NCBI GenBank assembly: GCA_045636565.1
Contig: JAZTXU010000255.1
Location: 1-49,803, forward strand
DNA from: Acutalibacteraceae bacterium
GTDB lineage: Bacteria; Bacillota; Clostridia; Oscillospirales; Acutalibacteraceae
Reading direction: 5' to 3'
DNA length: 49,803 nucleotides
Shown: positions 18,358 through 38,338 of the stretch, one piece after another
How the letters are laid out: each line of letters begins with the position of its first letter
Numbering within the stretch: position 1 is the first letter of the stretch
Made by a program: the position numbers and the translations under genes
The notes under the pieces: generated by a model
The model's input: only the letters and a program-made list of their open reading frames with translations
What the model was told of the DNA's origin: nothing
Databases searched by the model: none

Positions 18358-18389
18358 ATTTAAAAATTTACAAAAGAAGGGTTTATAAT

Positions 18390-19469: not shown

Positions 19470-19508
19470 GTTGTTCGTAATAATTAAATAATATTATTTC
19501 AGTGCATT

Positions 19509-19545
19509 AGAGCCCATAACCTTAAACCGGTTATGGGCTCTTTTT
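19509..19545 (+). terminator. Rho-independent terminator of the moron gene
   Basis: Perfect 13-bp stem agagcccataacc / ggttatgggctct, 7-nt loop, T-run. Confidence 0.8.
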
Positions 19546-19549
19546 ATGC

Positions 19550-21184: not shown

Positions 21185-21204
21185 ATTTACCTCCAAATAA
21201 AAAA

Positions 21205-21234
21205 GAGCCAACAACCAGTTAAGGTTATTGGCTC
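21205..21234 (-). terminator. Hairpin plus T6 immediately upstream of the terL RBS
   Basis: The minus strand reads gagccaataacc ttaact ggttgttggctc tttttt atttggaggtaaatATG. 12-bp stem with 1 mismatch. Confidence 0.55.
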
Positions 21235-21265
21235 AAGGGCTCTGTAATTTATTTAATTGCTATGA

Positions 21266-21448
21266 TTATTTAAGGCTTTTTAAAGCCCTTTCCAACAATT
21301 CATTTAATACATCACTAAAATCTTTATTATTTATTCCTACCTGCTTATTAATCTGTTCAAGTAACTCGTTTTTGATTCTTATATTATATATTACAGTATA
21401 GTCCAGTGAGTCTGTTCTTCTAAATAATATATCCATACAATCATCCAT
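21266..21448 (-). CDS. Ribbon-helix-helix (Arc/CopG-like) small DNA-binding protein (60 aa)
   Basis: YNIRIKNELLEQINKQVGINNKDFSDVLNELLERALKSL fits a beta-strand plus two helices. Divergent from a repeat array. Confidence 0.5.
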   Translation of the reverse strand: MDDCMDILFRRTDSLDYTVIYNIRIKNELLEQINKQVGINNKDFSDVLNELLERALKSLK

Positions 21449-21609
21449 TATTCTTCATCCTTCCTTTTTGTGTTTAGACCCTTCTTTTGTAATATTAAAA
21501 ATTGCAGTTCATTGCAGTATTTATTTTTTATAATATTATCAAAGTTAACCAAAGCACGCTACCAATTTTGCACCCTACATTTTCGATAGCGAAAATGTAG
21601 TTTTAGAGC

Positions 21610-21745
21610 TCAAAAATATCAAATTCGAGAACCGCTTTTGCAAATTTGATAACCTGATTTTGCAACCTCGAAGCTTCATTTTTCAAGTTCGATTCCGCAA
21701 ATGCAATCTCGATTTCACCTTTGCAAATTTGATTATTGCATTTAA
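21610..21745. repeat. Array of degenerate units of about 21 bp containing TTGCAA / TCGA cores
   Basis: Examples: ttttgcaaatttgataacctga, ttttgcaacctcgaagcttca, tttttcaagttcgattccgc, aaatgcaatctcgatttcacc, tttgcaaatttgattattgca. TTGCAAATTTGAT occurs twice (21637 and 21720). Confidence 0.6.
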
Positions 21746-21764
21746 TTTACATTTTTGGTATTAT
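21736..21764 (+). promoter_or_regulatory. Sigma-70-like promoter abutting the repeat array
   Basis: TTGCAT, 17-nt spacer, TATTAT with an upstream TGn. Confidence 0.45.
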
Positions 21765-21811
21765 GTGCTCATAGGTTACACCTATTATACACGAAAGGAC
21801 CGCAAAAGTCA

Positions 21812-21964
21812 ATGACAATCAAAGAACTCTTGGCAATCATCACCACTCTCCCCGAGGACACCGGAATCCTCATCGAAGAAACCGACGTAAATGAGCTTGA
21901 AACCGTTGAGGTTCAGTATCATTCCGACGGGCGAATGCACGTTATTCTCTCAGTGGCTGAGTGA
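21812..21964 (+). CDS. Small acidic protein of unknown function (50 aa from the ATG)
   Basis: MTIKELLAIITTLPEDTGILIEETDVNELETVEVQYHSDGRMHVILSVAE. The ORF-track TTG start at 21755 would lie inside the promoter. Confidence 0.4.
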   Translation: MTIKELLAIITTLPEDTGILIEETDVNELETVEVQYHSDGRMHVILSVAE

Positions 21965-22148
21965 GTAGGTAAACTGAAATGATGTACTCTATTGACTTTT
22001 TGTAACTTTCATTGTCAAGTTTTGTCGAACGATTTAACTTGATTTTACCAAATTTTTCCTGTATAATATTTATGCGATTGACGGTTATTTCCATCCCGTC
22101 ACGCGCTTCTTTCTTAATTGTGCGATGGTGTTTCCGCGCATCGTCCAC
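21942..22148 (-). CDS. Hypothetical 68-aa ORF (GTG start), possibly not coding
   Basis: ORF only. Weak RBS. It overlaps the convergent plus-strand gene and contains a strong plus-strand promoter. Confidence 0.2.
   Translation of the reverse strand: MDDARKHHRTIKKEARDGMEITVNRINIIQEKFGKIKLNRSTKLDNESYKKSIEYIISVYLLTQPLRE
22039..22067 (+). promoter_or_regulatory. Sigma-70-like promoter inside or antisense to the 68-aa ORF
   Basis: TTGATT, exactly 17 nt, TATAAT. About 140 nt downstream is the hairpin ttaaacggcc...ggccgtttaa. Confidence 0.4.
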
Positions 22149-22244
22149 ACTCGCGCCTTAAGCGTGTTAAACGGCCTTGCCTATTAATTCAGGTGAGGCC
22201 GTTTAACGTTTGAATAGCAAGAGCCTTAACTTTTTGCAAAGGAA

Positions 22245-22275
22245 AAGCCCTTGCTCAATAAATAAGCAAGGGCTT
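22245..22275 (-). terminator. Terminator downstream of the anchored secreted-protein gene
   Basis: 11-bp stem aagcccttgct / agcaagggctt, 9-nt loop, T-rich minus-strand tail. Confidence 0.6.
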
Positions 22276-22337
22276 CTCCAAAAACATTTTTTCCAGGAAC
22301 AAAGAAAAATGTATGAGTTGGATTGTTTAGAGCGAAA

Positions 22338-23147
22338 TTATGCTTTGCGAGCTTTTACAACGAATGCTGCTGCCATAAGAGCAACGATCATTGCGCCTAC
22401 GATAGCAACTACTTCGATGTCAGCGGGGCCTGCGTTGGAAACGGTAAATGCGGTAACATCTGCAACAGAACCGTTGTTGGATTTGATAACGAGGTTTCTG
22501 AAGGAAGGCTGACCGCCGTCGCCGTTATTTGCAAGACAGAAGAAGTTACCGTTCGAGGTAGCAGCTACACCGTCGATAGCGATCTGATCGTTTACCATAT
22601 AGGTAACGTAGTTGTCTTCAACTATAACCTTAACGGTGTTCCACTGACCTGCTTTGATTCCGAGATCTGCGTAAGATGCGCAAGAAGCCGTAACGGAAGC
22701 GGTGCTGTCAAAGCACTCTATTACTGCGTAGGTGTTACCCCAGTTTGCATAATTATCGGGAGTGCCTGCCGGATGTCCTTCATAGTTAATGAGCTTGAGG
22801 GCCATACCTAAAAGCCACATATTTGTTGCGGGATTAGTAGCCTTAACCGAGATAACGGGAGCACCGGTAACATAAGCGCCGCCTGCGAGGGTCTTTTCGG
22901 GAACGTAAACTTCAACGGTAGCGGTGTAGTTGTTGTTGAATGCAGAAACGTCGTAACCTACGGTGAGGTTTGCAAAGTCTGCGGGATTGCCCCAATTCAT
23001 TGAGAGAGAACCGTCTGCATTGATTTTGTGCATATCATCGGTGGTGCCGGTTACGGTAACCCAACCTGAGGGGAGAACTGCGCTTGCAGAAACAGCAAGT
23101 GCAAATACAAGGGTAAGTGCGATTGCGAGTGTCAAGATTTTTTTCAT
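22338..23147 (-). CDS. Secreted, C-terminally membrane-anchored beta-sandwich protein (LamG/DUF1080-like guess)
   Basis: Signal peptide MKKILTLAIALTLVFALAVSASA. C-terminal TM segment IEVVAIVGAMIVALMAAAFVVKARKA. QWNTVKVIVEDNYVTYMVNDQ...SFRNLVIK pattern. Confidence 0.6.
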   Translation of the reverse strand: MKKILTLAIALTLVFALAVSASAVLPSGWVTVTGTTDDMHKINADGSLSMNWGNPADFANLTVGYDVSAFNNNYTATVEVYVPEKTLAGGAYVTGAPVISVKATNPATNMWLLGMALKLINYEGHPAGTPDNYANWGNTYAVIECFDSTASVTASCASYADLGIKAGQWNTVKVIVEDNYVTYMVNDQIAIDGVAATSNGNFFCLANNGDGGQPSFRNLVIKSNNGSVADVTAFTVSNAGPADIEVVAIVGAMIVALMAAAFVVKARKA

Positions 23148-23177
23148 TTGTTTTTCTTCCTTTCGGTTTTAATATTT

Positions 23178-24011
23178 TTATGCTTTATTTCCACAACCGC
23201 CCTTATTTTCTGCAGGGGGATTTACAGTGGTTGAGGACTCGGGCTCGGAGGGAGCGGGCTCACTTGATGAGGGAGGATTTACCTCAACGCCTTCACCGCC
23301 AACGAGAACGAGAGTGTTGAATTTTGCAGCGTTGCAGATTTCATCGTAATCAGCATAAAGACCGCCGGACTCAACGTTCATAATGATGTTACCAAAGCCC
23401 ATCTTCAAACCGCTCTTGACAACGAAATTTTCGTTCTTCTTTCTGAGAGCGTCCCATTTGATGAGGATTTCCAAAACGTAGCCGTCAGCATTGATGGTAG
23501 CCTGAATGTCAATAATGTTTTCCACTGCACCGGTAGCGTACTGGCAGTGCTCGTACCAGATAGCGTGGTTATCGGTGGTGTTAGACTGAGGAACAAAGTC
23601 AAAGATGTAAGAATCGGTGTAACCGTTTGTCTTTTTGTTCAAAGGATCGAATTCAATCTGAATAGCATCGGTTCCATTAAGAGGCTGAGTATTTGTGTAA
23701 ACGTTGGGGTCGAGATTGTTATCCTTGACGTCAGCGTAAACATAAAGACCGTTTTCGTTCCAGAAATAGTAATAATCGGTCACAAAAGGAACGGAGCCTA
23801 CTCTGAATCCGGGAGTGGATTCGTCGATTGTAAACTTCTTTGCGTTTGCCCATTCACCGTCAGTGATGGTTCCGTCAATGGTGGGTGCGTTTTCAGGTGC
23901 GATGTAAGGGATTTCCGCGTCTGCCTTTGCGGTAGAACCTACAAAGGTAAATGCCGCGAATGCGGAGATGACAAGGGAAAGTGCTAGGATGATTGACAAT
24001 GTTTTTTTCAT
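23178..24011 (-). CDS. Secreted CBM9-like carbohydrate-binding protein
   Basis: Signal peptide. IDGTITDGEWANAKKFTI ... NGLYVYADVKDNNL ... TDAIQIEFDP, characteristic of family-9 CBM / DOMON-like modules. Pro/Ser-rich C-terminal tail. Confidence 0.6.
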   Translation of the reverse strand: MKKTLSIILALSLVISAFAAFTFVGSTAKADAEIPYIAPENAPTIDGTITDGEWANAKKFTIDESTPGFRVGSVPFVTDYYYFWNENGLYVYADVKDNNLDPNVYTNTQPLNGTDAIQIEFDPLNKKTNGYTDSYIFDFVPQSNTTDNHAIWYEHCQYATGAVENIIDIQATINADGYVLEILIKWDALRKKNENFVVKSGLKMGFGNIIMNVESGGLYADYDEICNAAKFNTLVLVGGEGVEVNPPSSSEPAPSEPESSTTVNPPAENKGGCGNKA

Positions 24012-24291
24012 TTGTTCATTTTCCTTTCGAATTAATATTTTTTTGCTTTTAACATCCTATTGATTTCTTTATAATACAAATGTTTTACACTTAATCACAA
24101 CAAAACGTCCAACTCAATCATTTTGAAGTTTTTTCGTGTTTTATACTATAAAACGACAAATCAATAGTCCCTTATGTTTTTATTCGCTATTATCAAATAT
24201 TTGTAAATATTTTTTTCTACTTTTTTAATGATGCTTCAATGCAGGCTTTTTGTTTTATGATTGTTCTGGGCTTTGGTTGATAGATTTAATT

Positions 24292-25980
24292 TTAACCAAT
24301 CATTTCCTCATACCAAGCATTTACGTCTGCGGTAATTTCAGTGCCGCCCTGATTATAATACTCTTCAACGAGAACGTCGAAGTAATCGAGCTCCATCTCG
24401 CCGATGATTATCTGAGCAAAGCCAACGGTAAGCATACCCTTGAGATTTGTGTTGAATTCGAGCATACTTTCGGTGTCAGCTCCCTGATAAAGGGTTGTAA
24501 ATCTGTCGTGACCTGCTTCTGCAACCTTAAGGTTTGCGCCGTCGATGCCGTACATTCTCTCCCAGTACCAGTTGTTTATGTTACCGGTGTCGAGGTAATT
24601 CTTAACGTTATCGTAAACCTGTCTGTCCTGTCCTGCCTTCAAAACTGACTCGTCGCCGGTTTCGAGAGCTTCCTTGATTCTCTCTGCAATGCCAGAGTTA
24701 TCGCCGGTGGTTCTCTGGGTGATTGCGGGAGCAAGGTTGTAGTAGTGAGTGGTACCGTCCATAGAGTACATATACTCTGCCTGAATTGCAATATCGTCTT
24801 CAGCTGCTGCTTCGATCTCGCAGTACATATTCATAAGAAGAACGGAAACTGCGGGATATTTGCATTCCTTGCTTACAACATACTGACGGAAGGTGTTAAG
24901 CGAAGAGCTGATAACGGGATCGGAGCCGTCTGCCGAAAAGAGGGTGAAGGAGGTCATTTCGAACTCGCTGTTCTGTCTCTTAAGGTTCTTAAATACGTTC
25001 ACGTAGTTGGTGGTACCCTCAATACAGCCTGCTTTTCCCTGCAAAACACCGTTATAGCCTGCGTAAAGCGCATTCTCATCCTCGGTTATGGGGTAGATAC
25101 CGCCTGCGGCGTAAAGGTTGCGGAGCTCTGCAAGAGCAGTTTTCATTTCGGGCTGGATAGAGCCGTACTCAAGCTTACCGGTATCCTCGTTAAGTACCCA
25201 CTGATCGGGGAAGGCGCCGAAGGTGTTGAATATCATGTTGTTGAGTGCGCCTGCATCGAGGAGGTTGAGGCCGAGGCCATAGGTGTCGTCAATATTATTG
25301 CCGTCGGGATCCTGATTTGCAAAGGCAATCATAACGTCCTTGAAATCATCCCAATTATCGGGAACGCTCTTGTTTACGGCATCGAGCCAATCCTGACGGA
25401 TCCACCATACAACGTTTTTGGAGTTACCGACAACGATGTGGGGAAGAGCGTAGATCTCGCCGCCGAAGGTTGCGGAATAGAATACCTGATCGCCTACGAG
25501 CTCGATGGCGTCCTTATAATCCTCACAGGCATAGAGCTCTATCATTTCGTCGATAGGCTGAATGAGGTCGGCATTGTAAAGCTTACTTACGTAGTTGATT
25601 GCAATTGTGTCGTAAAGGCAGTTTACGTAGTCGGGAATCTCGCCGAGCAAGATGGCGTTATCGAGCTTCTGTATATAAGATCCGCTTTCGTGAATTTCCC
25701 ACTCAAGCTTAAGGTCGATACCGTAGTTGGACTTTGCAAGTCTGGTCCACGAGGTATCTCCCGTGGTCCAGTCGGGGTTGCCGTCTGCATCCTTGTGATG
25801 GTCAACGGCTTCCTGACCCGAGCCGACGAAGGGATACGCCCAGGTTACCTTAACGGTGGGGGAGTATTTGCCGTCGATAACTTCAGACTGAATTTCGGGT
25901 TCGCCGCAGGATGCGAGCATTCCGAGACAGCCGATAATCATAACGACGGTGAGGAGTATTGCGCTGATTCGTTTTTTCAT
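24292..25980 (-). CDS. Orphan extracellular solute-binding lipoprotein (large LplA-type ABC substrate-binding protein)
   Basis: Lipobox GMLASC. WWIRQDWLDAVNKSVPDNWDDFKDVMIAFANQDPDGNNIDDTYGL is typical of sugar SBPs of about 550 aa. No permease or ATPase genes are nearby. Confidence 0.75.
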   Translation of the reverse strand: MKKRISAILLTVVMIIGCLGMLASCGEPEIQSEVIDGKYSPTVKVTWAYPFVGSGQEAVDHHKDADGNPDWTTGDTSWTRLAKSNYGIDLKLEWEIHESGSYIQKLDNAILLGEIPDYVNCLYDTIAINYVSKLYNADLIQPIDEMIELYACEDYKDAIELVGDQVFYSATFGGEIYALPHIVVGNSKNVVWWIRQDWLDAVNKSVPDNWDDFKDVMIAFANQDPDGNNIDDTYGLGLNLLDAGALNNMIFNTFGAFPDQWVLNEDTGKLEYGSIQPEMKTALAELRNLYAAGGIYPITEDENALYAGYNGVLQGKAGCIEGTTNYVNVFKNLKRQNSEFEMTSFTLFSADGSDPVISSSLNTFRQYVVSKECKYPAVSVLLMNMYCEIEAAAEDDIAIQAEYMYSMDGTTHYYNLAPAITQRTTGDNSGIAERIKEALETGDESVLKAGQDRQVYDNVKNYLDTGNINNWYWERMYGIDGANLKVAEAGHDRFTTLYQGADTESMLEFNTNLKGMLTVGFAQIIIGEMELDYFDVLVEEYYNQGGTEITADVNAWYEEMIG

Positions 25981-26120
25981 TGCTATATTCCTTTCTGTAT
26001 TTTAATTTTTATCCAAGGTGTCAAGTGAGGTAAAATAAAGGTAGGTTTATGTAAATAAAAATATTTTAAAAATTGTTGATTTGCAACCGCAAAGAAAAGT
26101 TTATTATAAGCTATTTGCAT

Positions 26121-26354
26121 CTAGGGACCGCCGTTTATAAAACGAGGTTTGCCTATTTTGGGGATATTCTGCGTTTCGAGCGTGTAACGACCCGGTCCAA
26201 ACAAATCAAGAGCCTGCCCGTTCATAAAGAAGATAACTTCCTGTGATTCGTGTACGATAAGCTGAGTAAGGCTGTTGAAATCTTCATTTGGATGTTTCCA
26301 AATAAATGTACTATTATCCCCCTCATACTTAATAATATCCGCAATCTGTGCCAT
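26121..26354 (-). pseudogene. 5-prime fragment (77 codons) of an SPFH / 'virion core protein'-type (YdjI-like) gene
   Basis: RBS ggaggtgatttt then MAQIADIIKYEGDNSTFIWKHPNEDFNSLTQLIVHESQEVIFFMNGQALDLFGPGRYTLETQNIP. The sequence then diverges and stops. From memory, full-length members are about 300 aa or more. Confidence 0.55.
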
Positions 26355-26804
26355 AAAATCACCTCCAATAAAATAAAAAAATGCGGCTACCGAAGTAACC
26401 GCATAAAAAATACAAACTCCGATAGTCGCCAAACTAATTATACAAAATGGTGTTACCCAGTTCCGTTATAATGGAATTTGCATTTTTATCAAATTCATAC
26501 GGAAACTGAAAAATGGCACAATATCCCCTTGGATATAAAAACACCACTTTATATATTAAATTAGTTTGGCATAATTATTTTACCACAATATTCTCCAAAA
26601 TTCAACAAGTTTTGAAAAATTTGTAAAAATATATAATGAGTAAAATTTCAAAAAAGCAAATAAAAAACCGAGGGTTTTAGTTGGTGTTGGCTTGAAATTG
26701 CGACCGTTGCGGGCAGGCGTTGGATTGGAAGAAATATAAATAAAAAATTAGCTCGAATTGCGCTGATTTTAAAAAAGAAAAAATTAGCTTTACAGCACAA
26801 AGAA

Positions 26805-26830
26805 AGAGCCTTGCTTTTCAGCAGGGCTCT
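26805..26830 (-). terminator. Terminator closing the toxin/immunity transcription unit
   Basis: 11-bp stem agagccctgct / agcaaggctct (minus strand, one G-U pair), then ttctttgtg. Confidence 0.55.
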
Positions 26831-26952
26831 TATCTATTAGTTTGCTTTGGAGGTTTATTATACAATTTATTGGCTGTCTTATGTTGCCATTGATATTGTA
26901 AATCTATCTAGTGCAAAGATATACAATACTCTTGTCCCCACGTTAAGTATTT

Positions 26953-27231
26953 TTATTTTTGTATGCCTTTCTCGTGTTTTTTTATTTCATTAAAAGAAAA
27001 ATCAAGGCGACAGTTTGCACAGTAAAAATGTCTTGTTCTAAATTCAACATCACCCACAAAAAATGTATCACCTACTGAAAAATCATAATCTTTTGCTTCT
27101 GGAGATTTGGAATTTACAATTTTTTTGGTGTACCGTAATTCTAATCTGTTTCCGCACTTGGGGCAGAAATGTTTTTTCCAATGAACATAGAACGGACTGG
27201 CATCATAAATATATTTTATCGCTTTTCTCAT
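26953..27231 (-). CDS. Small double-CxxC zinc-ribbon protein (92 aa)
   Basis: CPKCGNRLELRY ... YCANCRLDF. Last gene of the immunity-like array. Confidence 0.6.
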   Translation of the reverse strand: MRKAIKYIYDASPFYVHWKKHFCPKCGNRLELRYTKKIVNSKSPEAKDYDFSVGDTFFVGDVEFRTRHFYCANCRLDFSFNEIKKHEKGIQK

Positions 27232-27271
27232 AATTCGCCCTCCTGTTTATTGTGCGGGTTTAAATTGTACT

Positions 27272-28222
27272 TTAAATGCTTTTCTTATAAATACTGAGTT
27301 CTCTAAGATTGTGTCCGCAATATCGCTTAATCATTTTTGTTTCAAATGTTTCATCATATTGTTTCCACGAAACAGCAACAATATTTTCTTGTGAATGAGG
27401 AATAAATTCTTTTTGCGGGTAAGCAGCATTCGCAAAATTCCCTACATAAATCAATTTTTCAGGGATGCTATTTTTCGAAATATTAAGTAATATTGCTCTA
27501 TACTGTGGCAAAAAACCATATTCATCTACTTCATAATTTTTCTTGGCTTTTTCAGCTATATCTTCTCGCGGACGTTTCATATCAATTGGTAAAAAGCGTT
27601 CCTCATATTTTGTGAACCAAGTCTGGACATATTCCAATCGGTTATATTCTTCTATAGTTGACGGAAGAGTGCTGCCGTTAGTTATTTTAACATATATAAT
27701 TGGTATTATGTGTCCAGGATGCCATACGCCCTCGTCAATTTTTTGGATCAAAAAATATCGACCATAGAGGCCTCTTTCTTTTGATAAATCGCTTTCCAGT
27801 TGATACGCAAAGACATCTCCAACTTTCCATTGGCATTTGTATATTTTTTTCTTTGGCTTCTTTTTTGCTGGACAATGAGGTGAAAGAAGTTTTGCTTGTA
27901 AATTATCAAGAGCCTTTTTTCTTTTCACTTTTGTAGATATATCTGTTATTTGATTTGCAGATATATTATTGTCTTTATCAATCCAATAAAGAGCTTTTTC
28001 TTTAACATAAGGTAAAAGTACGCCTAAATCCCATTGTGTTTCAGCCAGCGCCCACCAAAACAACGGTTCTTCATTGATGTCACCCATTATGCTATTATAA
28101 TCTTGTGTTAATTTGTCGGTGATATATTGTGCATTTTTGCCGGCGTTGAACAATTCTTTAAATTCATTTTTAACATCCAGTGATGTATCATTTTGATATA
28201 ATTCAAATCCCCACATTCCCAT
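27272..28222 (-). CDS. DUF4259-like N-terminus protein, putative orphan immunity protein (316 aa)
   Basis: The start MGMWGFELYQNDTSLDV has RBS gaggtgattgaa. The MGxWGxGxxxND pattern is characteristic of DUF4259, a family often found in polymorphic-toxin immunity loci. Confidence 0.5.
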   Translation of the reverse strand: MGMWGFELYQNDTSLDVKNEFKELFNAGKNAQYITDKLTQDYNSIMGDINEEPLFWWALAETQWDLGVLLPYVKEKALYWIDKDNNISANQITDISTKVKRKKALDNLQAKLLSPHCPAKKKPKKKIYKCQWKVGDVFAYQLESDLSKERGLYGRYFLIQKIDEGVWHPGHIIPIIYVKITNGSTLPSTIEEYNRLEYVQTWFTKYEERFLPIDMKRPREDIAEKAKKNYEVDEYGFLPQYRAILLNISKNSIPEKLIYVGNFANAAYPQKEFIPHSQENIVAVSWKQYDETFETKMIKRYCGHNLRELSIYKKSI

Positions 28223-28262
28223 TTCAATCACCTCAAATTAATTCCCTGTCCAATACAAAATT

Positions 28263-28382
28263 TCATTTGACATTTGGTTCCAACCGTAACATACGCTTAC
28301 GAATTACATTGGATTTTATTATTACTACGGCCGTAATCGCAAAAAAAACACAGCCAATAATTATTCTGATAATACCAAACAT
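28263..28382 (-). CDS. Possible 39-aa single-pass membrane peptide
   Basis: RBS ataggagtgtaataaa then ATG. Translation is MFGIIRIIIGCVFFAITAVVIIKSNVIRKRMLRLEPNVK. Fills the gap between two immunity-like genes. Confidence 0.3.
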   Translation of the reverse strand: MFGIIRIIIGCVFFAITAVVIIKSNVIRKRMLRLEPNVK

Positions 28383-28405
28383 TTTATTACACTCCTATTA
28401 ATATT

Positions 28406-28762
28406 TCAACAGTAGTATAGCACGGCCATAAGCTGTTCATATATGTTGGGTGATATAAGATTTTGTAATTTATTTAGTGTTTCTCTAATTTCAACCTTTG
28501 GACATTGTAACGATAACAGCTTAAATGCCTCTATAATTTCATTTTCGGGCAAATTAATGCGAGATAGAGGTACAATTTTAAAGAACTCACCTTTGTTGAT
28601 AATATCATCAATAAGATTATTCTTAATTTCGATGCTCCATTGATACTCTATTTCACCAGAAACTTTCTTTTTTATGTAGTCGTGGTATTCTCCGTTTCGT
28701 TTCATCGTTAGGAAATTACCAAAATTATTAAAATATATTTCTTTTGCTGTCTTATAGTTCAT
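28406..28762 (-). CDS. Putative cognate immunity protein of the Rhs toxin (118 aa, no recognisable family)
   Basis: Starts 13 nt after the toxin stop with RBS aaggag. Same AT-rich composition as the toxin tip. Confidence 0.55.
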   Translation of the reverse strand: MNYKTAKEIYFNNFGNFLTMKRNGEYHDYIKKKVSGEIEYQWSIEIKNNLIDDIINKGEFFKIVPLSRINLPENEIIEAFKLLSLQCPKVEIRETLNKLQNLISPNIYEQLMAVLYYC

Positions 28763-28775
28763 TTACTATCTCCTT

Positions 28776-31700: not shown

Positions 31701-34700
31701 GAGGTAAATATCTATGGAGGTGTAGTTATTCTGTGCGGTTACGGTGCCGTAAACGTATTGCCAATCGTTTACGTAGGAGTTAAATGAAACGTAGCCTGCG
31801 GTTTTATCCGCATCGTTTTCGGCATCGTTGAATACTACGAGGATTCCGAAGCGAAGAGGTGTGTTTTCGGAAACGGGAAGTGAATCTGCTTTTGCCCAGC
31901 CGGAGAAGGTTATTGTGTCACCTGCTTTGCCCGAACCTGAGATAGTCTGGCGGGCAAACTTCTCTGCATTGACCACGCCCACTATTTTGAGGGCGTTTGC
32001 ATCTCTGTAGTCGGAGGTGTTATCCGATACCGATGTGGCCGAAAGCGCGGTGCCTTCCCAATTAGTTATGCCGTTATTGAAGTCGCCGTTTGAGATTATA
32101 TTATCTCTTTGCGAGGCGTTATCTCCGATTGTTACCTGCAGATCGTCAAAATAGGCTACGCCCGGTTTGCCTGTTGCACCGAGATAAAGAGTTAGCGTTT
32201 CGGTGCCCGAAGTGGTTGAATCGTACTCGGCGGTTACTTTTACACGGCTCCATTCACCCGAGGTTGTTATTATCTCGGATTTGGTTACTTCTGTCTCGCT
32301 TGACGGTTTAATGCCTATATAAGCTTTAACATTATTGGTTGCTGTTTTTATCCACGCGGAGAAGGTTATTACGGTTGCCTTATTGGCAGGGACGGTGAGA
32401 TTGTAGGTTGATTCGAGAGTTAATCCGTCGGTAACTCTGCCGATCATAAAGCCGAAGCTTCCGCTGCGACCCGACGAAGTTCGCATTCCAACGTCTGCGA
32501 CACCTGCTACACCGATAAACGGATGAGAACCTTTCTCAAAGCTCGGGTCAGCTAAGAGATTTATCGTCTGGTTTTGTACGCGGGAGGATAAGGTCAGCTT
32601 ATTTATGCTGCCCTCGCCGTATTCTCTGCCGTAATCGTAGAAATAGCCGTTGCCGTTCTCATCGGAGGATGAGATAAGATTTCCTCTTGAATCGAAATTC
32701 ATATAGGAAATATTGCCCTTCGAATCGGTCAACTTTGTTCTGTATGGCTCATAACTAAACTCGATCCATTCGTCTGCTTCGCTTTGTTGATTACCGCTGT
32801 AATAGGTAACGCTCGAAACCTTTTTATTGTCAAAGGTGAAGGTATAACTGTCTCCGGTGTCTTTGTCTTTAAAGGTGTTGTTGCCGTAAAAGACTATTGA
32901 GCTGAAAAAGCTGTATTCGCTGTTACCGTTTGGTCCGGAAGCAGTAAGAGGGCTGTTTGCCACGTTAAAAGTATATGCGGTTTTCGAAATATAGCCTTCC
33001 GTATCATTGGTAATTAGTGTATGATCAGCTACGGTATTACCGAAATAACGTATTTCCGTAAATCTTGGTACAGCACCGCTGATATAGATGAACTTGTATA
33101 TTCTGCCTGCGCCGTCTATTATACAGTCAATAACGTAGCCGGTAGTGTTTTTGTAATGAATCTGTATTTTATTATCCGACGTTGCTGCGTCTGCAAGTGA
33201 ATTTTCGGAGTTTTTATCCGTTATTGCAACAAGTCTGCCCGAAGCGTCGGTATCGAACATATAACGCAATCCCGAGTCGGAATGATAGCAATAATGTGTC
33301 TTGCCGTCATAGGTTACCGTTTCAAAGTATTCACTCGGCCAAGCCTCAGCCTCATACAGTCCACTTTCATTTTCGGTTATTCTTGTGGAATATTTATCCG
33401 GAACGTAAATGCCCTTAGTAACGTCGCCGACCTTATATTGTTGCAGCACGAAATACCGTTTGCTGTGGGTGCCGTCAATATATTCAATATAGTCGTCGCC
33501 ACCTATGGTCTTTAGCGTTATATGCTGGTGGTAATTGGTTTTTACATATTGGCCGATATTATAGGCTATCCAATTTATTCCGCTACCGAAAACCATACTT
33601 ATAGAAACCGGTAAGATATTTCCGTCATAGCCGATGTCGTTTCTTATTATGGTGAGATCTCCGGAATAGGGATTTATATATGCCGTTCCCGCGCTGCCCA
33701 TATCCACGGTATAGCTCGGATTATCCGTAAGTCCGCTTACGTTTCTGTATGCAAAATAGATGCACGGACGGCGGTTTTCGGTTCCGTATTCGGCCGACCT
33801 GAAGGTAGCGTAATTGCCGGATTCCTCGTTGCTGTATTTAAGCATAAAGCCACGGTTATTGTCTTCGGATTCATACCATTTGTTTACAAGGCTTGTAAGG
33901 TCGAAATAGTAATATTCCGGTGCTGTCATTTCACAGCTGTCGATTATCGCCGCTTCGTGCTCCGGTTTATTGTTCCAGTTTACTCTGTTATATGTAAATG
34001 TCGATTTGATATCGTGAAGCTCGGCATATCCGCTGCCGTTATAGTTGGTTCGCCAGATCTTGAGCTCTGCTTTTATAAGCACGTCGCCTGCGGCAAGGGT
34101 GGGCAAATAATCCTGATTGAACTTCATATAGGTTCGGTTAATGCCGCGGCCCTCGCAACCCATTCGTAGGAAGTTCTGATTCCAATAATTTAAGGTGGGA
34201 TAGCCCGAAGCTACGGTAACGTCCTGCATTACGTCGCTTCCGGTTCCGTTGCTTACAGTGGGATCTATAGTTACGGGATATACGCGGTCAACAGAAGAAA
34301 GCCATTCGTATGATGGCGTGTAGGTGAGTATGTATTTGTTTTTCGATGCGGTGGGAGATAACGTTACGGAGATGTCATCGGAGTAATCTCCGTTTGCATC
34401 CTCCATAAAGGGCGCGTAGATCGTAAAGAAAACTTCGCCCGTGATTCTGTCAGAGAAGGTAAGGCTGCCGTCATCGTAAAGAGTGGCGGCCAAGCCGTGA
34501 GTGTTTATCTCATAGGAATAGCCCGTCTCCCTTTCGGGCATTTTGTTAAGTATTATTTCTTCCTTAAGCTCATTGCTCTTGATGGTGTAAGAAATATCTG
34601 TATCCTTGAAGGTATTTTTGTAATTAAGCTTGGAATATATCTTATTGCTTACGTCAGTCTTATCGGTGCTGCGAGATGCTTTATTTGCTATTTTACCCTC

Positions 34701-35186
34701 TGCGGCGGTGGCGTTTATGAGCTTGAAGGTAATTTTTGCGTTATTGTGAGATACCGTTATTTCGGAGCTTCCGTTAATTTGACCCGGTAATTCAACCGAG
34801 AACGGATTATTTTTATTCTTAAGGGTATTAGTTTTTGTATCCGTAATAACAGAGTTATCTATTTCCTTCCAACTACCATCCTCAAGGTAATGCACTGCCT
34901 CGGGGTACATAACGGCAATCATTATTCCTTCTTCGGTGTTGAAATGCTTTACCGATTCCTCACGGAGTGAAATATCCTCATCGGTTATAGTAAGATCTTC
35001 AAAATCTATATTTTCGTAATCAAGATAGGTGTTTACTACGTTTTGCTTTTTTGAAGGATTATTAGCTTTTCCGGCAGTTTCTAAGGTTATTCCGGCTTGC
35101 GCAAAGCCCTGTATTGCAAGCGTCACAAATAAAGTAATACTGATGATTAGTGCGCAGGCTCTCTTAAATGTTTTTCTAAATGTCAT
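28776..35186 (-). CDS. Sec-signal Rhs/YD-repeat polymorphic toxin (2136 aa): DNRLRE-like domain, two CBM4/9-like modules, YD repeats, RHS core, glycine-zipper block, unassigned C-terminal domain
   Basis: The start MTFRKTFKRACALIISITLFVTLAIQGFAQA has RBS aggaggtttatt. Many YxYDxxGN repeats. Core end PLRYRGYYYDTDTGFYYCISRYYDPEVGRWINAD and NPINRVDATGNW. Confidence 0.9.
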   Translation of the reverse strand: MTFRKTFKRACALIISITLFVTLAIQGFAQAGITLETAGKANNPSKKQNVVNTYLDYENIDFEDLTITDEDISLREESVKHFNTEEGIMIAVMYPEAVHYLEDGSWKEIDNSVITDTKTNTLKNKNNPFSVELPGQINGSSEITVSHNNAKITFKLINATAAEGKIANKASRSTDKTDVSNKIYSKLNYKNTFKDTDISYTIKSNELKEEIILNKMPERETGYSYEINTHGLAATLYDDGSLTFSDRITGEVFFTIYAPFMEDANGDYSDDISVTLSPTASKNKYILTYTPSYEWLSSVDRVYPVTIDPTVSNGTGSDVMQDVTVASGYPTLNYWNQNFLRMGCEGRGINRTYMKFNQDYLPTLAAGDVLIKAELKIWRTNYNGSGYAELHDIKSTFTYNRVNWNNKPEHEAAIIDSCEMTAPEYYYFDLTSLVNKWYESEDNNRGFMLKYSNEESGNYATFRSAEYGTENRRPCIYFAYRNVSGLTDNPSYTVDMGSAGTAYINPYSGDLTIIRNDIGYDGNILPVSISMVFGSGINWIAYNIGQYVKTNYHQHITLKTIGGDDYIEYIDGTHSKRYFVLQQYKVGDVTKGIYVPDKYSTRITENESGLYEAEAWPSEYFETVTYDGKTHYCYHSDSGLRYMFDTDASGRLVAITDKNSENSLADAATSDNKIQIHYKNTTGYVIDCIIDGAGRIYKFIYISGAVPRFTEIRYFGNTVADHTLITNDTEGYISKTAYTFNVANSPLTASGPNGNSEYSFFSSIVFYGNNTFKDKDTGDSYTFTFDNKKVSSVTYYSGNQQSEADEWIEFSYEPYRTKLTDSKGNISYMNFDSRGNLISSSDENGNGYFYDYGREYGEGSINKLTLSSRVQNQTINLLADPSFEKGSHPFIGVAGVADVGMRTSSGRSGSFGFMIGRVTDGLTLESTYNLTVPANKATVITFSAWIKTATNNVKAYIGIKPSSETEVTKSEIITTSGEWSRVKVTAEYDSTTSGTETLTLYLGATGKPGVAYFDDLQVTIGDNASQRDNIISNGDFNNGITNWEGTALSATSVSDNTSDYRDANALKIVGVVNAEKFARQTISGSGKAGDTITFSGWAKADSLPVSENTPLRFGILVVFNDAENDADKTAGYVSFNSYVNDWQYVYGTVTAQNNYTSIDIYLCYNYNSNTAYFDGIQAFKEKAGTIYSYNSAGYVSEQTTFDDETYSYTYNEDGEVTSVTRKVKKADGTEKTQTINITSSNGDTTGVTVTADSVTTDTETVSRDIFGNTLLTRTTHTKGDTVYYTETLNEYTENGNYLTKVFDELQESHTAYNYDLSTGLLTSATDNEGNTVSYSYDSNHRVTSVTAGNNSVNYEYDLAGRLSKITSLNGVEYGFDYNEYGQTRTVSVGGTVLVTNEYKDILHNGVLDNAVYGNGYTVRYEYGNQDTNVAGGVENDSVTAIFVNDATDARYEFTYDSLGRLIETIDNGNSLKTNYYYNYDGDLAAMQVSSLSGTGYSYGVTQTFDSENRLIKQTRVITIGTGTSAKTTEAVTEYTYEDGENEDGTVTVKFTEGEEENKRTYLAHSSADAMGRNSGKTLIKQTGENAVTLLEYLFKYRTKLVNGTLLQSGIVSNFKINILGTQFKNFSYTYDYNGNITSISDGTSTASYVYDSLGQLIRENNGFIGKTITYTYDAGGNILSKSEYAYTTSASLGTPTATISYGYSNDNWKDLLTSYNGQAITYDAIGNPLNYMGRTMTWEGRRLISTTKNGASIQYKYDDGGLRLSKQDTTGTTRYTYDNGKIVHQYTENNGVITNELFFRYDENGAPLSVSYNGTEYFYVLNLQGDIIAIIDNSGAVVVQYSYDSWGYHSSDDISGTMASTLGTVNPLRYRGYYYDTDTGFYYCISRYYDPEVGRWINADNGFYFENDVDPISFNLFAYCKNNPINRVDATGNWSIWATIGVVVGAAICIAAVTVLTCGVGTATLAGAVAVGAAKGALIGATAGTIVGAGIGYATTGTVEGLIEGAAIGFGVGAVVGAVAGAKAGASSWYNTMAQEFTNVGSNEVVLGRSGTYEAVAQSRGSTYFHTTDARWTEVHDMFGVGDKGMWNINKAFLNQQISAGSTFALANNPAISGGYYFVKEVAYLVSKGISMLPIF

Positions 35187-35233
35187 AATAAACCTCCTAG
35201 TAATAAAAAATATAACTTTATATTGCCAAACAT

Positions 35234-35262
35234 ATTTTACCATATACTTACAGATATGTCAA
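35234..35262 (-). promoter_or_regulatory. Strong sigma-70 promoter of the Rhs gene
   Basis: Minus strand: TTGACA, 17-nt spacer, TAAAAT, preceded by TGg (extended -10). About 45 nt upstream of the RBS. Confidence 0.65.
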
Positions 35263-35412
35263 ATAAATGATAAAATTCGCAATTAATCTCGGGAGTTTTC
35301 AGCTATATTTTATATTCTGAAACAGTTAAGGTCGCAAGAAAGCACGCATTTTTGAAGGTATAGCTTTTGCGGGCTAATATTATCATAAAGTGCGGTCTTG
35401 TGACTCTGTTTT

Positions 35413-35518
35413 TTGCCAACTTGGCAAGAAATATAAGCCGATATTACCAAAATGGCGATGATATAAACTGATGTTGCCAAAATGGCAACAGAATAAGCCG
35501 ATATTGCCAAAATGGCGA
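35413..35518. promoter_or_regulatory. Array of four TTGCCA-N(1-3)-TGGCAA palindromes at 30-31 bp spacing
   Basis: ttgccaacttggcaa (35413), ttaccaaaatggcga (35444), perfect gttgccaaaatggcaac (35473), ttgccaaaatggcga (35504). The last three lie in three tandem 30-bp units. Confidence 0.7.
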
Positions 35519-35630
35519 TAGATTTTCAAACGCCACAACATTATAATAGATATGAAATATAACCACATCTATCTGAGAGGAGAAAGTGCGAGGTTAAAAT
35601 TACTCAAATGTGATTCCCAAGCCTGTTGAT

Positions 35631-35660
35631 AAAAAAACGGACAGCTTGCGCCGTCCGTTT
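35631..35660 (-). terminator. Rho-independent terminator downstream of the small recombinase unit
   Basis: Stem aaacggac / gtccgttt flanked by A7 on the plus strand (T-run on the minus strand). Confidence 0.7.
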
Positions 35661-35726
35661 TATGAATTTATTCGTCGTCTTCGTCTTTTTTTCTGCCTTT
35701 TCTTATATACAATATTACTGTTTTCA

Positions 35727-35843
35727 CTATGACACCTCCTTACACAATCTATACCAATGTGTTCTGCTTATACCTAATTGTCGGCAGCTCTCTGATACTG
35801 AAAGATGCCCCTTTTTTGTTTTTTCGAAAAATTCCGGAAAGTC
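35727..35843 (-). other. In-frame 38-codon continuation after the recombinase TAA, encoding a helix-turn-helix
   Basis: Reading on from the TAA at 35844-35846 gives DFPEFFEKTKKGHLSVSESCRQLGISRTHWYRLCKEVS then a stop. No internal start codon. Confidence 0.6.
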
Positions 35844-36599
35844 TTATTCGTCAGCCAATATAGGTTGATGTTCACCTTTAACCCAATCACCATTTTTTCC
35901 GTATTTGTAATATCCACGATATGTTTTCTCATTACCAAGAATTACTTGTACAGAGCTAATTGCCCATTGACCGCCGCTCTTATTCACATATCCATTATCA
36001 TTGAGAGCAGCTACAATTTGACGATAAGTGCTGCCGTTTTTCTTCATATCGTAAATCATTCTTACTATCTTTGCCTGTTCTTCTACAACAACCATTTTAC
36101 CGTGTTGCGCTGTATATCCGTAAGGAGTTCTGCCGCCACTGTAACCGCCTTTAGAAGATTTAACAATACGTCCTGCACTTGTACGTTTGTTAATATTATC
36201 TCTTTCCATTTCAGCTACGCAAAGTGTAAAAGCTTCAAGCATACTTGCAAAAACACCAAACTGCCCAAAATCCTCAGATATTGATATTAACTTAATATTC
36301 TTTTTGATTAAAAGCATTTTGTAGTAATAATAGATGTTAATATCACGCGCAACTCTATCACTTTTGGCAACAATAACCGCCTCATAAGGTGGATTGTTGA
36401 CATCACCATATACAATTTCGTCAAAACCGGGACGCTCTTTTGCGCCTGATTCTCCTTCGTCAGTGTACCACCTAATTATATTCATACCATTGGCACTGCA
36501 ATAATCAATAATTTGTTGCTTTTGAACATCAAGACCAAACTTATCGTCTTTACATTGACCGTCTGTTGAAACTCTAATATATCCAATTACGTTTTTCAT
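35844..36599 (-). CDS. Serine recombinase (resolvase catalytic domain plus recombinase domain, 251 aa to the TAA), possibly a nonsense-interrupted gene
   Basis: MKNVIGYIRVSTDGQ catalytic serine motif with RBS ggaggtatatt. Ends ...GEHQPILADE, where large serine recombinases normally continue. Confidence 0.8.
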   Translation of the reverse strand: MKNVIGYIRVSTDGQCKDDKFGLDVQKQQIIDYCSANGMNIIRWYTDEGESGAKERPGFDEIVYGDVNNPPYEAVIVAKSDRVARDINIYYYYKMLLIKKNIKLISISEDFGQFGVFASMLEAFTLCVAEMERDNINKRTSAGRIVKSSKGGYSGGRTPYGYTAQHGKMVVVEEQAKIVRMIYDMKKNGSTYRQIVAALNDNGYVNKSGGQWAISSVQVILGNEKTYRGYYKYGKNGDWVKGEHQPILADE

Positions 36600-36615
36600 A
36601 ATATACCTCCGCTCT

Positions 36616-36879
36616 TTACGATAACATTTTACCATTTTTACGATAACTATGTCAATATGTTTTCGTAAATTTCTTTTTTATTTTTTCAGAAATTTAAGGC
36701 AGTTAGTGAGTGGTGCTGGCGGTCAAAATACACCCCCGCCCCCGTTTCCGTCGGTGTTTCTTCATTATATAGAAAAAAATATTATAATTCTTTAATTTAT
36801 GAAAAAATTGTAAATTTACGATAAATCTTGATTTATCTATTGACATTTACGATAAATCATTTATAATAGTAATCGTAAA
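36616..36879. promoter_or_regulatory. Divergent control region: six copies of TTTACGA(TAA) plus a plus-strand promoter
   Basis: Direct copies at 36616, 36637, 36815 and 36846; inverted copies at 36663 and 36872. TTGACA (36840), 16-nt spacer, TATAAT (36862). Palindrome gataaatcttgatttatc. Confidence 0.55.
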
Positions 36880-36902
36880 ACAAATTATAGGAGGTTTTAA
36901 CA

Positions 36903-37292
36903 ATGATTAAAACAAATAGCAAAAGAGCCACAGAGAATTTACAACAGTACATTATTAACAACTTTACACCGGAGGGCTACACAGATACACCGCCGCAGGA
37001 CTGGCCCGGAATAGCAACATTTATTATTGAAACATTCAGATCTGAAAAATACAGCAGGCCGGAGGATTTCAAATATTATCATAATATTGAAATATCCGCG
37101 TTTATTGATTGGGCGCAGGGGCTGCCATCTGTGCTTGATACTTGTTACTTTTATAATAGGTCCGCTATTGACGATCTAGGCGATATATTAGAGGAAACAG
37201 AAACAGAAAAAAGCAAGCACGACGAAACAGACGCGGAACACCTTTTAACACGTTTAATTTATAGAGCTTTAATAACGGAGGTAACAAAATAA
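36903..37292 (+). CDS. Hypothetical protein (129 aa), first gene of the plus-strand small-gene operon
   Basis: RBS ataggagg. ORF is followed by tightly coupled genes. Confidence 0.7.
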   Translation: MIKTNSKRATENLQQYIINNFTPEGYTDTPPQDWPGIATFIIETFRSEKYSRPEDFKYYHNIEISAFIDWAQGLPSVLDTCYFYNRSAIDDLGDILEETETEKSKHDETDAEHLLTRLIYRALITEVTK

Positions 37293-37486
37293 TGATTTTA
37301 AAAGTATCACAAAAAACTAATAATTGCGGCTGGCGTAAACAATTAATAATTGATTTTAATAATAAAACAATCACGGCGGGCGCGTTTTTATTCCATAGCG
37401 GCGACGTTAACGACGTAACAACAAAACAATATAAACAAATAATTGATTATTTTATATATCAAGGATTCGAAAAAAGGGAGGGCTAA
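37292..37486 (+). CDS. Hypothetical protein (64 aa)
   Basis: Start overlaps the previous stop (TAATG). Confidence 0.55.
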   Translation: MILKVSQKTNNCGWRKQLIIDFNNKTITAGAFLFHSGDVNDVTTKQYKQIIDYFIYQGFEKREG

Positions 37487-37489
37487 AAA

Positions 37490-37627
37490 ATGTTAACTGA
37501 ATTATTACAGGATCTAAAAAAAGCAATATTAAACAATGATATTGCAGCACAAAAAAACATTATAAAACAATTAAACCGCGTCGGAATGGACACAGCCACA
37601 ATTAAATTATTATTAAAGGAGATCTAA
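37490..37627 (+). CDS. Hypothetical 45-aa protein (below the ORF-track cutoff)
   Basis: RBS gggaggg 8 nt upstream. MLTELLQDLKKAILNNDIAAQKNIIKQLNRVGMDTATIKLLLKEI. Confidence 0.45.
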   Translation: MLTELLQDLKKAILNNDIAAQKNIIKQLNRVGMDTATIKLLLKEI

Positions 37628-37630
37628 AAA

Positions 37631-37831
37631 ATGAAATATTATAATTTTGAAACAATGTTTATATCATTAGCTACTAAAATAGGGGACTTTTTACACGAAA
37701 ACAGTATATATTTTGAGATTTCAAAAAATGGGCGCTATTATCATTTTGAAATATTAACCGATACAGCCGGGGCTGCTGCAATAAATGACTTTTTAGACGC
37801 TAACACAATATACCATAAGGAGGCGATCTAA
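37631..37831 (+). CDS. Hypothetical protein (66 aa)
   Basis: RBS aaggag. Coupled to its neighbours. Confidence 0.55.
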   Translation: MKYYNFETMFISLATKIGDFLHENSIYFEISKNGRYYHFEILTDTAGAAAINDFLDANTIYHKEAI

Positions 37832-37890
37832 TGATAGTATTATTAATTCTATTATTACCAATATTAATTATAGCAAGCGCTACAAAATAA
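37831..37890 (+). CDS. Possible 19-aa hydrophobic peptide MIVLLILLLPILIIASATK
   Basis: RBS aaggagg 7 nt upstream. TAATG overlap with the previous gene. The terminator follows directly. Confidence 0.3.
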   Translation: MIVLLILLLPILIIASATK

Positions 37891-37894
37891 TAAA

Positions 37895-37928
37895 AACCGT
37901 CCGGAGAGATCCGGGCGGTTAATTTTTT
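37895..37928 (+). terminator. Terminator of the small-gene operon
   Basis: 10-bp stem aaccgtccgg / ccgggcggtt (one G-U pair), 6-nt loop, then aatttttt. Confidence 0.7.
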
Positions 37929-38281
37929 ATATAGTTTTACTTTTTAGCTGCACACTATTATATTTTAGTGTGTTTTTTTATTGCCCCAAATTTGCGTTTT
38001 AAGGGTTTTTATTGTTTTATAGGGTTACTCTATGCTGAAATATTAAAACCCCTTAAAATTGATTGTGGCGCATTTTACAAGGTGTTAAATTCTGTGTAAT
38101 TTCTGTATAAATCCAGTGTAAAACGCCCCAAAAACAGCCATTCAAGGCCTTCCCCTATATGCAAATTTCGGTCAAAATCAGGGCAAATTTTGTGAAACTT
38201 TTCCTTTTTTATAGAGTAGGACCGTCAAAACTTTCACTATATGCGATTTCTCGTCAAAACTTAGTATTATACAATTTTCTC

Positions 38282-38310
38282 TTGATTATACTTTTAAAAT
38301 ATGGTATAAT
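38282..38310 (+). promoter_or_regulatory. Near-consensus promoter pointing antisense into the terS-like gene
   Basis: TTGATT, exactly 17 nt, TATAAT with an upstream TGg. No plus-strand ORF lies downstream. Confidence 0.4.
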
Positions 38311-38338
38311 ATTCCAAAATATTGTATAAATTTATTCT

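Follow-up and report, generated by a model that had tools for sequence, protein, structure and literature searches.

A probable lysogenic-conversion island with a host-derived Rhs locus between the putative terminase genes of a temperate phage of gut Oscillospirales

We analysed positions 1 to 49,803 of contig JAZTXU010000255.1 (Acutalibacteraceae bacterium, assembly GCA_045636565.1), a stretch of 49,803 nucleotides (nt) that is referred to here as the window. Positions 1-126 and 49678-49803 form an exact terminal direct repeat of 126 nt, and the contig therefore represents a 49,677-bp circle. It is the complete genome of a temperate siphophage of gut Oscillospirales (Clostridia). Our subject is the interval 21185-38338, which separates the gene of the large terminase (terL) from a candidate gene of the small terminase (terS). 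A first-pass annotation, made from the letters alone, had placed both genes on the same strand at a distance of about 17.1 kb, and the measured distance is 17,154 bp, which corresponds to 34.5% of the genome. All contents that it had listed for the interval, namely an Rhs toxin with immunity-like genes, three secreted proteins, a gene fragment, a serine recombinase, a small-gene operon, promoters and terminators, were reproduced in our analysis. It had also stated that the interval is free of virion and replication genes, and we found no match to any such family there. In the following, comparison loci that were fetched are labelled L001, L003, L141, L150 and so forth, and relative proteins P0122 and P0261. 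The features from terS to terL are given below (aa, amino acids; HTH, helix-turn-helix; ORF, open reading frame).

38339-38878, minus strand: terS candidate, 179 aa, assigned by phrog_606 at the family level and by fold matches
36903-38329, plus strand: small-gene operon (129, 64, 45, 66 and possibly 56 aa), phage backbone
36600-36902, no strand: divergent-promoter control region with six copies of TTTACGATAA
35844-36599, minus strand: serine recombinase, 251 aa (ORF 35844-36635), Pfam Resolvase 1.7e-24 and Recombinase 7e-14
35666-35843, minus strand: 3' remnant of a small resolvase (HTH tail), reading frame ending in CRQLGISRTHWYRLCKEVS and a stop, right backbone edge
35234-35661, minus strand: terminator (about 35630-35661), GCCA-N3-TGGC palindromes and Rhs promoter, from repeat, hairpin and promoter scans
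28776-35186, minus strand: Rhs/YD-repeat polymorphic toxin, 2136 aa, with DNRLRE, Rhs core and a divergent C-terminal tip
28406-28762, minus strand: candidate immunity gene, 118 aa, by position and size, GC 0.30
26953-28231, minus strand: two low-GC genes (319 aa and a 92-aa zinc-ribbon protein), GC 0.31-0.33
26562-26871, no strand: non-coding remnants of a donor rhs locus, matching intergenic DNA of L139/L140
26121-26432, minus strand: 5' fragment of an SPFH/Band-7 gene, Band_7_1 4.7e-09 over just profile positions 8-52 of 211
24292-25980, minus strand: lipoprotein, 562 aa, lipobox LASC, GC 0.49
23178-24011, minus strand: secreted CBM9-like protein, 277 aa, CBM9_1 2e-13
22338-23147, minus strand: DUF1080/3keto-disac_hyd-fold protein, 269 aa, Pfam 1.2e-07, with signal sequence and C-terminal membrane anchor
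21965-22337, minus strand: left cargo edge with two hairpins and a doubtful 68-aa ORF (21942-22148) that has no homologue in any locus
21755-21964, plus strand: antisense small gene, backbone, with homologues upstream of terL
21266-21448, minus strand: 60-aa ORF without homologues
21234-21205, minus strand: hairpin and T-run, about 10 nt before the terL ribosome-binding site
19550-21184, minus strand: terL, phrog_38 'terminase large subunit' 1.3e-60

The separation of terS and terL is a trait of the whole lineage. In all 33 loci that show both genes (IMG/VR and genome loci, with flanks of at most 10 kb, so that larger gaps would have escaped), the gap measures 3,973-6,069 bp, and these loci include phages whose terS is just 21-30% identical. 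In L001 and L003, which carry close terS homologues, terL lies 4.8-5.4 kb downstream of terS, and in L150, from a Candidatus Fimenecus metagenome-assembled genome (MAG), the gap is 3,989 bp. The first-pass expectation that the two genes should be adjacent is thus wrong for this lineage. The gap of the relatives contains, in this order, an opposite-strand small-gene operon, a serine recombinase, one or more variable genes and a small antisense gene, followed at the terL end usually by an HTH gene of about 132-139 aa and then by a hairpin abutting terL. Accordingly arranged are the outer parts of the window interval, about 3.4 kb in all, where operon, recombinase, antisense gene and pre-terL hairpin represent conserved phage backbone. 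The operon has homologues at the corresponding position of L003, L004, L008, L041, L046, L079, L141, L150 and L153; the 129-aa protein matches phrog_11100, the version of L141 encodes ArdA, and the operon terminator of the window is found at 37895-37920. Homologues of the antisense gene are present in L001, L003, L005-L009, L146, L148, L150, L153 and L154. In L003, the antisense small gene (12629-12784 / 14503-14655) has a paralogue heading the opposite-strand small-gene operon, and therefore resolvase and cargo are bracketed there by two same-strand gene copies of about 50 aa.

The terminator-like hairpin that had been noticed right before the terL ribosome-binding site lies at 21234-21205. 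It is kept in L150 (14111-14150), while L099/L101 have another hairpin at this place. Since the hairpin stands too close to terL for a promoter to fit behind it, late transcription must pass through it, perhaps by antitermination. In the non-coding DNA that separates the antisense gene from the 60-aa ORF, several TTGCAAA or TGCA-N-TGC-like repeats are found at 21560-21750; they might serve as packaging signals or as sites of a late promoter or a regulator.

The DNA between recombinase and terL is a slot that is hypervariable across more than 80 relatives. Eleven loci have essentially empty slots of 74-316 bp and others carry one to three genes, which encode OB-like-domain membrane proteins, lipoproteins, zinc-ribbon membrane proteins, an Mrr-like nuclease, a methylase, a HicB-like protein or a second resolvase. 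In L150, the same type of recombinase is followed by a single gene for a 127-aa membrane protein. Between closely related pairs, the swapped block extends from a conserved ribosome-binding site or start codon to a conserved terminator, and no core site is shared. The first-pass annotation had not recognised the site as one typical of morons; it is, however, the normal accessory slot of this phage group, filled in the window to an unusually large size. In broader terms, it corresponds to the boundary between early and late genes.

Alignment to relatives also gave the borders of the cargo. On the right, positions 35666-35844 show 94% nt identity to L141, and on the left, DNA homology to L006/L007 reaches up to 21930. 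The cargo between them covers 21965-35665, i.e. 13,701 bp or 27.6% of the 49,677-bp genome. The first-pass estimate of approximately 17 kb of non-phage cargo, one third of the genome, therefore holds insofar as the interval is largely accessory and mosaic, but the conserved outer 3.4 kb has to be subtracted, which leaves about 13.7 kb. No homologue of a cargo protein was found among the 138 phage loci then fetched, and no direct or inverted repeats flank the cargo, with just chance 8-13-mers at its ends. In agreement with the mosaic composition described earlier, GC varies between 0.30 and 0.50 in the interval and between 0.30 and 0.49 in the cargo, compared with 0.40 for the genome; the counts given for five 60-nt lines (33, 32, 18, 16 and 21) were exact. 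Promoter-like sites were predicted at 36840-36867 (12/12) and at 36655-36626, 35262-35234 and 21812-21784 (11/12 each), of which the consensus promoter at 35262-35234 is accompanied by flanking hairpins. Hence, several of the features by which morons and lysogenic-conversion genes are recognised are found in the cargo, namely absence from relatives at the same site, an own (here predicted) promoter and terminator and a deviant composition.

The Rhs protein has the domain order DNRLRE, YD repeats, Rhs core and variable tip. Matches were obtained to RHS_repeat (1.5e-17), YD_repeat_2x (2.7e-17), DNRLRE, the precomputed TEN_YD-shell and Rhs_assc_core TIGR03696 (1e-18, residues 1843-1932), and the N-terminus reads as a Sec signal. 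Its closest relative, P0122, is chromosomal and shares 80% aa identity, with 84% nt identity over 29503-35165. Identity to the chromosomal homologue is 85% aa up to residue ~1955, where the alignment ends, and therefore the toxin tip and the low-GC genes downstream of it (118, 319 and 92 aa) differ. Differing toxin tips and downstream genes are usual for rhs loci. The donor-type rhs locus, on a Clostridia MAG chromosome, is located between rmuC/ftsW/ftsK and ordinary metabolic genes and has orphan Rhs tips downstream. In the window, the 118-aa ORF starts 14 nt downstream of the Rhs gene and is without a family match. No significant family was obtained for the 319-aa and 92-aa proteins, whose genes fall inside a segment bounded by rhs-locus spacer homology: 26562-26671 and 26697-26871 are 90% and 88% identical, respectively, to intergenic pieces of the chromosomal rhs locus of L139/L140.

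The predicted Rhs promoter is a near-consensus TTGACA-17-TAAAAT with extended TG. At 150-280 bp upstream of it, four GCCA-N3-TGGC palindromes follow each other with a spacing of ~30 bp (35415-35516), and the terminator sits between these palindromes and the recombinase. Exact matches to the palindrome number three in the window, all of them at 35415-35516. The array is absent upstream of the chromosomal Rhs gene (L139), a metagenome scan for the pair found none, and no close Rhs relative was found in a scan of IMG/VR.

The remaining cargo genes encode three proteins with signal-peptide or lipobox N-termini (22338-23147, 23178-24011 and 24292-25980). The lipoprotein gene is 84% identical in nt and 85% in aa sequence to a chromosomal gene of MAG GCA_045648325.1 (L142), where it neighbours cmk, lytB-S1, rseC and rpsT. 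For the DUF1080 protein, the closest named relative is P0261 (66% aa), which is again chromosomal, beside smpB and shikimate (aro) genes; its contig of 218 kb comes from the sample that also yielded the Rhs relative. Since the homologues of the Rhs, lipoprotein and DUF1080 genes stand at unlinked chromosomal places, at least three host loci contributed to the cargo. The gene fragment and the spacer remnants point to illegitimate recombination. We also observed that 23107-23179 and 23971-24043 share a 73-nt 5' region (ribosome-binding site and signal-peptide start) with 74% identity, which points to tandem duplication of the two secreted-protein genes or to an expression module common to both.

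The serine recombinase had been counted among the cargo in the first-pass annotation, but it is a conserved backbone gene. More than 80 phage loci carry a full-length homologue (33-83% identity) on the strand of terL and 74-3,130 bp upstream of it, among them phages whose terL is only 35-38% identical; the protein of L150 is 83% identical to that of the window. The 251-aa protein has no zinc ribbon and aligns to the N-terminal halves of CcrB and CcrA (the first ~245 residues of CcrB), and the domain set of large serine integrases (catalytic, recombinase and zinc-ribbon/coiled-coil) is incomplete in it. A truncated integrase was nevertheless rejected as an explanation of the 263-aa ORF, as full-length homologues of ~250 aa are widespread. 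Among cultured phages, tblastn retrieved just ~30% matches to integrase N-termini and one unannotated faecal contig.

In the closest relatives L001, L003, L008 and L141, the position of the recombinase is taken by a 76-84-aa gene and a 189-205-aa resolvase. The right border segment of the window corresponds to the 3'-terminal part of the L141 gene for the 205-aa resolvase, together with 61 nt downstream of it. The presence of this remnant beside the 251-aa gene indicates that the latter replaced a small-resolvase module by recombination. In some relatives, namely L110-L117, L128 and L136, a second small resolvase (195 aa) follows in tandem directly after the ~250-aa recombinase; in L136 and L117, just its first ~27 codons are left, fused to other sequence. 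Such partial tandem resolvases indicate that deletion and replacement are frequent just downstream of the recombinase.

Upstream of the recombinase gene, the six copies of TTTACGATAA (four direct, two inverted, within 36615-36879) build two palindromic sites of 33-34 bp, 36637-36669 and 36846-36879, about 210 bp apart. They overlap both divergent promoters, that of the recombinase and that of the small-gene operon, and flank a conserved GC-rich core of ~176 bp. Six of the 21 TTTACGATAA matches in the window are clustered in this control region, and the observed total was reached by no shuffle. The motif is also clustered upstream of the recombinase in L085-87, L094, L096 and L150, and in L150 and L085 the two palindromic sites around the core are conserved, which, as read from the sequence, gives an inverton-like layout. 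In L141, which has the small resolvase, a TGCA-type motif stands in place of the TTTACGATAA array. The array looks like a site of res-like, autoregulatory or possibly invertible type.

Whether the cargo lies between the two terminase genes depends on the identity of the 179-aa protein, which is likely to be the small terminase, as had been called before. The protein has 410 homologues, and phrog_606 (terS) is matched by all 42 of those aligned (best E 2e-7), while any other family is matched by at most about half of them. The AlphaFold2 model (pLDDT, the model's confidence score, 71 overall and ~90 over residues 50-120) predicts an HTH (residues 81-100) and, after it, a helix of 45 residues (104-148), in keeping with the HTH and long oligomerisation helix expected of terS. 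In a Foldseek search against BFVD, ranks 2-10 were small terminases or gp3, themselves predicted structures, with probabilities of 0.80-1.00 (about 1.0 for the first seven). Adjacency to terL, a usual but not obligatory trait of terS, is absent, with 17.15 kb between the genes in the window. It is rather unlikely, though still to be taken into account, that the protein instead regulates late genes or is some other HTH protein at the end of the early operon; nothing would then lie between terminase genes, and the island would simply be located at the early/late boundary. Such an identity would be in line with the window protein's own match to phrog_606, which has an E-value of only 0.07, with the lack of any Pfam or NCBIfam match for the protein alone and of any match in a PDB profile search or in Foldseek against PDB, with the fact that its homologue never adjoins terL, and with phrog_532 'late transcriptional activator', which is also touched by 12 of the 42 homologues (E >= 0.08). 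These points are outweighed by the uniform family-level match to phrog_606, far ahead of other families, by the annotated top BFVD matches, all of them small terminases, and by an architecture compatible with terS. Moreover, there is no other candidate: no different terS stands beside terL, where the window has just the 60-aa ORF without a homologue in any relative. The HTH gene of ~132-139 aa just upstream of terL in relatives was considered as terS and rejected, since it is missing from the window.

We consider it probable that the window carries an oversized lysogenic-conversion island, in which a host-derived WapA-like toxin and its candidate immunity gene occupy the inter-terminase slot of the lineage. 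The slot would have grown to about 13.7 kb with DNA from an rhs locus, a lipoprotein gene, two genes of paralogous, secreted or anchored proteins of carbohydrate-binding type and a gene fragment. Such cargo would have entered by illegitimate recombination and may have been shuffled among related phages by homologous recombination via the conserved flanks. As morons, the genes would be transcribed in the lysogen from their own sigma-A-type promoters, with terminators insulating the late operon from them and the pre-terL hairpin shielding it in the lysogen. The Rhs protein would be exported via Sec, like B. subtilis WapA, and poison non-immune neighbour cells, the downstream 118-aa protein would protect the lysogen, and lysogens would thereby outcompete non-lysogenic kin. 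Expression, export, toxicity, immunity and the capture route are what we infer here from the anatomy of the locus. Besides the weak match of the terS candidate on its own, several findings speak against this interpretation. The donor-type loci are only 84% identical, the promoter scan exceeded shuffles modestly (66 sites versus 51 +/- 7), and the Sec signal is a prediction from sequence reading. In family profile searches, the Rhs C-terminal tip and the 118-aa protein matched no known toxin or immunity family, and toxicity and immunity are therefore argued from architecture. The two island junctions are taken from the assembled sequence. Finally, contigs with the same terS family cluster at 39.5-44.5 kb (more distant relatives reach up to 47 kb), and the window genome exceeds them by 5-10 kb; a headful capsid may therefore not hold the full genome, and the element could be packaging-impaired.

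An assembly chimera, in which the assembler joined host DNA to a phage contig, would account for the mosaic composition of the island in this metagenome-type contig, for the lack of any other contig with the same junctions, and for the fact that every cargo protein looked up, except the lipoprotein, is the sole member of its 90% cluster. We regard it as very improbable, because the contig closes to a circle and because the site of the foreign DNA is precisely the slot whose content differs among more than 80 relatives, with conserved backbone order on both sides. Several precise chimeric joins would be needed to combine at least three unlinked chromosomal sources, no repeats that could mislead an assembler are present at the borders, and the right border bears a resolvase remnant, which is a trace of evolution rather than of assembly. 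Improbable as well, to a lesser degree, is a role of the neighbouring serine recombinase in building or controlling the island, by integron-like capture or by inversion or resolution at its site array. The gene always adjoins the variable slot, it occurs at this locus in two alternative types (the 251-aa form, or a 76-84-aa protein with a ~190-205-aa resolvase), and a type-specific motif array with two palindromic sites stands beside it. However, nothing shows that the recombinase captured the cargo, which lacks flanking direct or inverted repeats and has a copy of the motif array at neither border. Cassette swaps in the relatives break at ribosome-binding site and terminator without a shared core site, the cargo is pieced together from ordinary chromosomal genes, remnants and a fragment, as is typical of illegitimate recombination, and the motif sites overlap both divergent promoters, as autoregulatory operators do (Tn3 res-like). 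Doubtful, though somewhat less so, is a broader proposal, according to which a large family of uncultured gut Oscillospirales siphophages possesses a conserved inter-terminase locus (terS, divergent anti-defence-type operon, recombinase with a type-specific res/lox-like array, slot and terL) that is a dedicated platform for host-range-independent cargo, the Rhs island included, and the recombinase acts on the phage genome. Its action could consist in cyclising or resolving that genome close to where packaging starts, comparable to Cre-loxP in P1, or in switching or exchanging the adjacent cassette. An origin of the island by aberrant excision was rejected, since it is about 13-27 kb away from the integrase and the att end.

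The rest of the genome has the gene set of a temperate siphophage. Besides a large serine integrase, it encodes HTH proteins of the CI/Cro type, a portal of the SPP1 type, a CHAP-LysM lysin and an MT-A70 methylase; further products are a DUF3799 nuclease, a helicase, a primase-helicase with DUF927, and AAA_24 and VRR-NUC proteins. The true integrase is the following gene.

48436-49770: true integrase, large serine type, with Zn_ribbon_recom domain

The late genes are all on the minus strand, and terL shares 80-88% amino-acid identity with relatives. In gut samples, the relatives are binned with MAGs of Acutalibacteraceae, Candidatus Fimenecus and Ructibacterium. The early region from terS to the integrase is compact in the window and in L141 (about 9.6-10 kb), which may have made room for cargo. 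A tRNA search and an Rfam scan of the whole window yielded no element, blastn of 17000-22000 against INPHARED gave no match, and exact-protein look-ups of window genes found nothing. A second insertion in the packaging module is a gene for a 359-aa zinc-ribbon membrane protein at 18390-19469 (plus strand), which lies on the opposite strand between terL and portal and has no homologue in any related locus; terL and portal are 1,576 bp apart in the window versus ~320-360 bp in relatives. Short matches to the lysogeny-switch region (36796-36816 with 47358-47378 and 18222-18253 with 47275-47306; 78-86% over 21-32 nt) are located near the small-gene-operon promoter and upstream of this zinc-ribbon moron. 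Either common operators or coincidental similarity of AT-rich DNA could explain them.

Overall, our data describe a temperate gut phage that carries a complete host-derived Rhs locus together with other cell-surface genes, amounting to more than one quarter of its genome. Notable about the locus are the size and host origin of the island, the fact that a Firmicute phage bears a full Rhs locus, and the conserved architecture between the terminase genes with its flanking recombinase. Provided that the toxin is active, a lysogen would be equipped to kill non-lysogenic kin in a contact-dependent manner, and phage spread would be linked to interbacterial warfare in the gut. As the whole lineage separates terS and terL by a recombinase-flanked variable slot, annotation cannot assume that terS adjoins terL, and the inter-terminase slot is a place to seek phage-borne accessory and defence genes in metagenomes.

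Bacillus subtilis WapA is a wall-associated, contact-dependent Rhs/YD-repeat toxin, with WapI as its immunity protein. The window protein resembles it in its predicted N-terminal secretion signal, YD repeats, Rhs core, polymorphic C-terminal tip and small downstream gene. Unlike WapA, which is chromosomal, it is encoded on a phage, and its presumed toxin and immunity domains are unrecognisable. In phage P1, Cre-loxP lies beside pac. Similarly, the window has a site-specific recombinase and a candidate site within a few kb of the presumed headful packaging start, but the enzyme is a serine and not a tyrosine recombinase and the site is a motif array only, so the analogy is to be taken as a lead. 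A role of WapA in competition and kin discrimination has been described (PMC5576092), and MuF polymorphic toxins are known from temperate Firmicute phages (Jamet et al. 2017; PMC5576092). With the latter, the window shares a putative polymorphic toxin and immunity pair on a temperate phage near the packaging module. MuF toxins, however, are fused to a virion-morphogenesis protein, whereas the MuF gene of the window (15921-16577) is ordinary and the toxin an independent imported Rhs gene. It has also been shown that stx, cdtB and the YD-repeat toxin of APSE3 sit at the early/late boundary, and that the phage-borne APSE3 toxin is part of a swappable module upstream of the packaging genes (PMC8579659). 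As in APSE and stx phages, host-affecting toxin genes would thus stand in a variable module near the packaging genes that is swapped among collinear phages. In APSE, the toxin lies between Q and the lysis/terminase genes, whereas the window slot is between terS and terL and not upstream of both; in contrast to APSE and stx, the cargo of about 13.7 kb is of multiple origin and a serine recombinase flanks the slot. Moreover, unlike the APSE3 toxin, the window Rhs protein (2136 aa, predicted Sec signal) is of the DNRLRE type of Gram-positive chromosomes and is followed by a candidate immunity gene, and therefore it is probably antibacterial rather than anti-eukaryotic.

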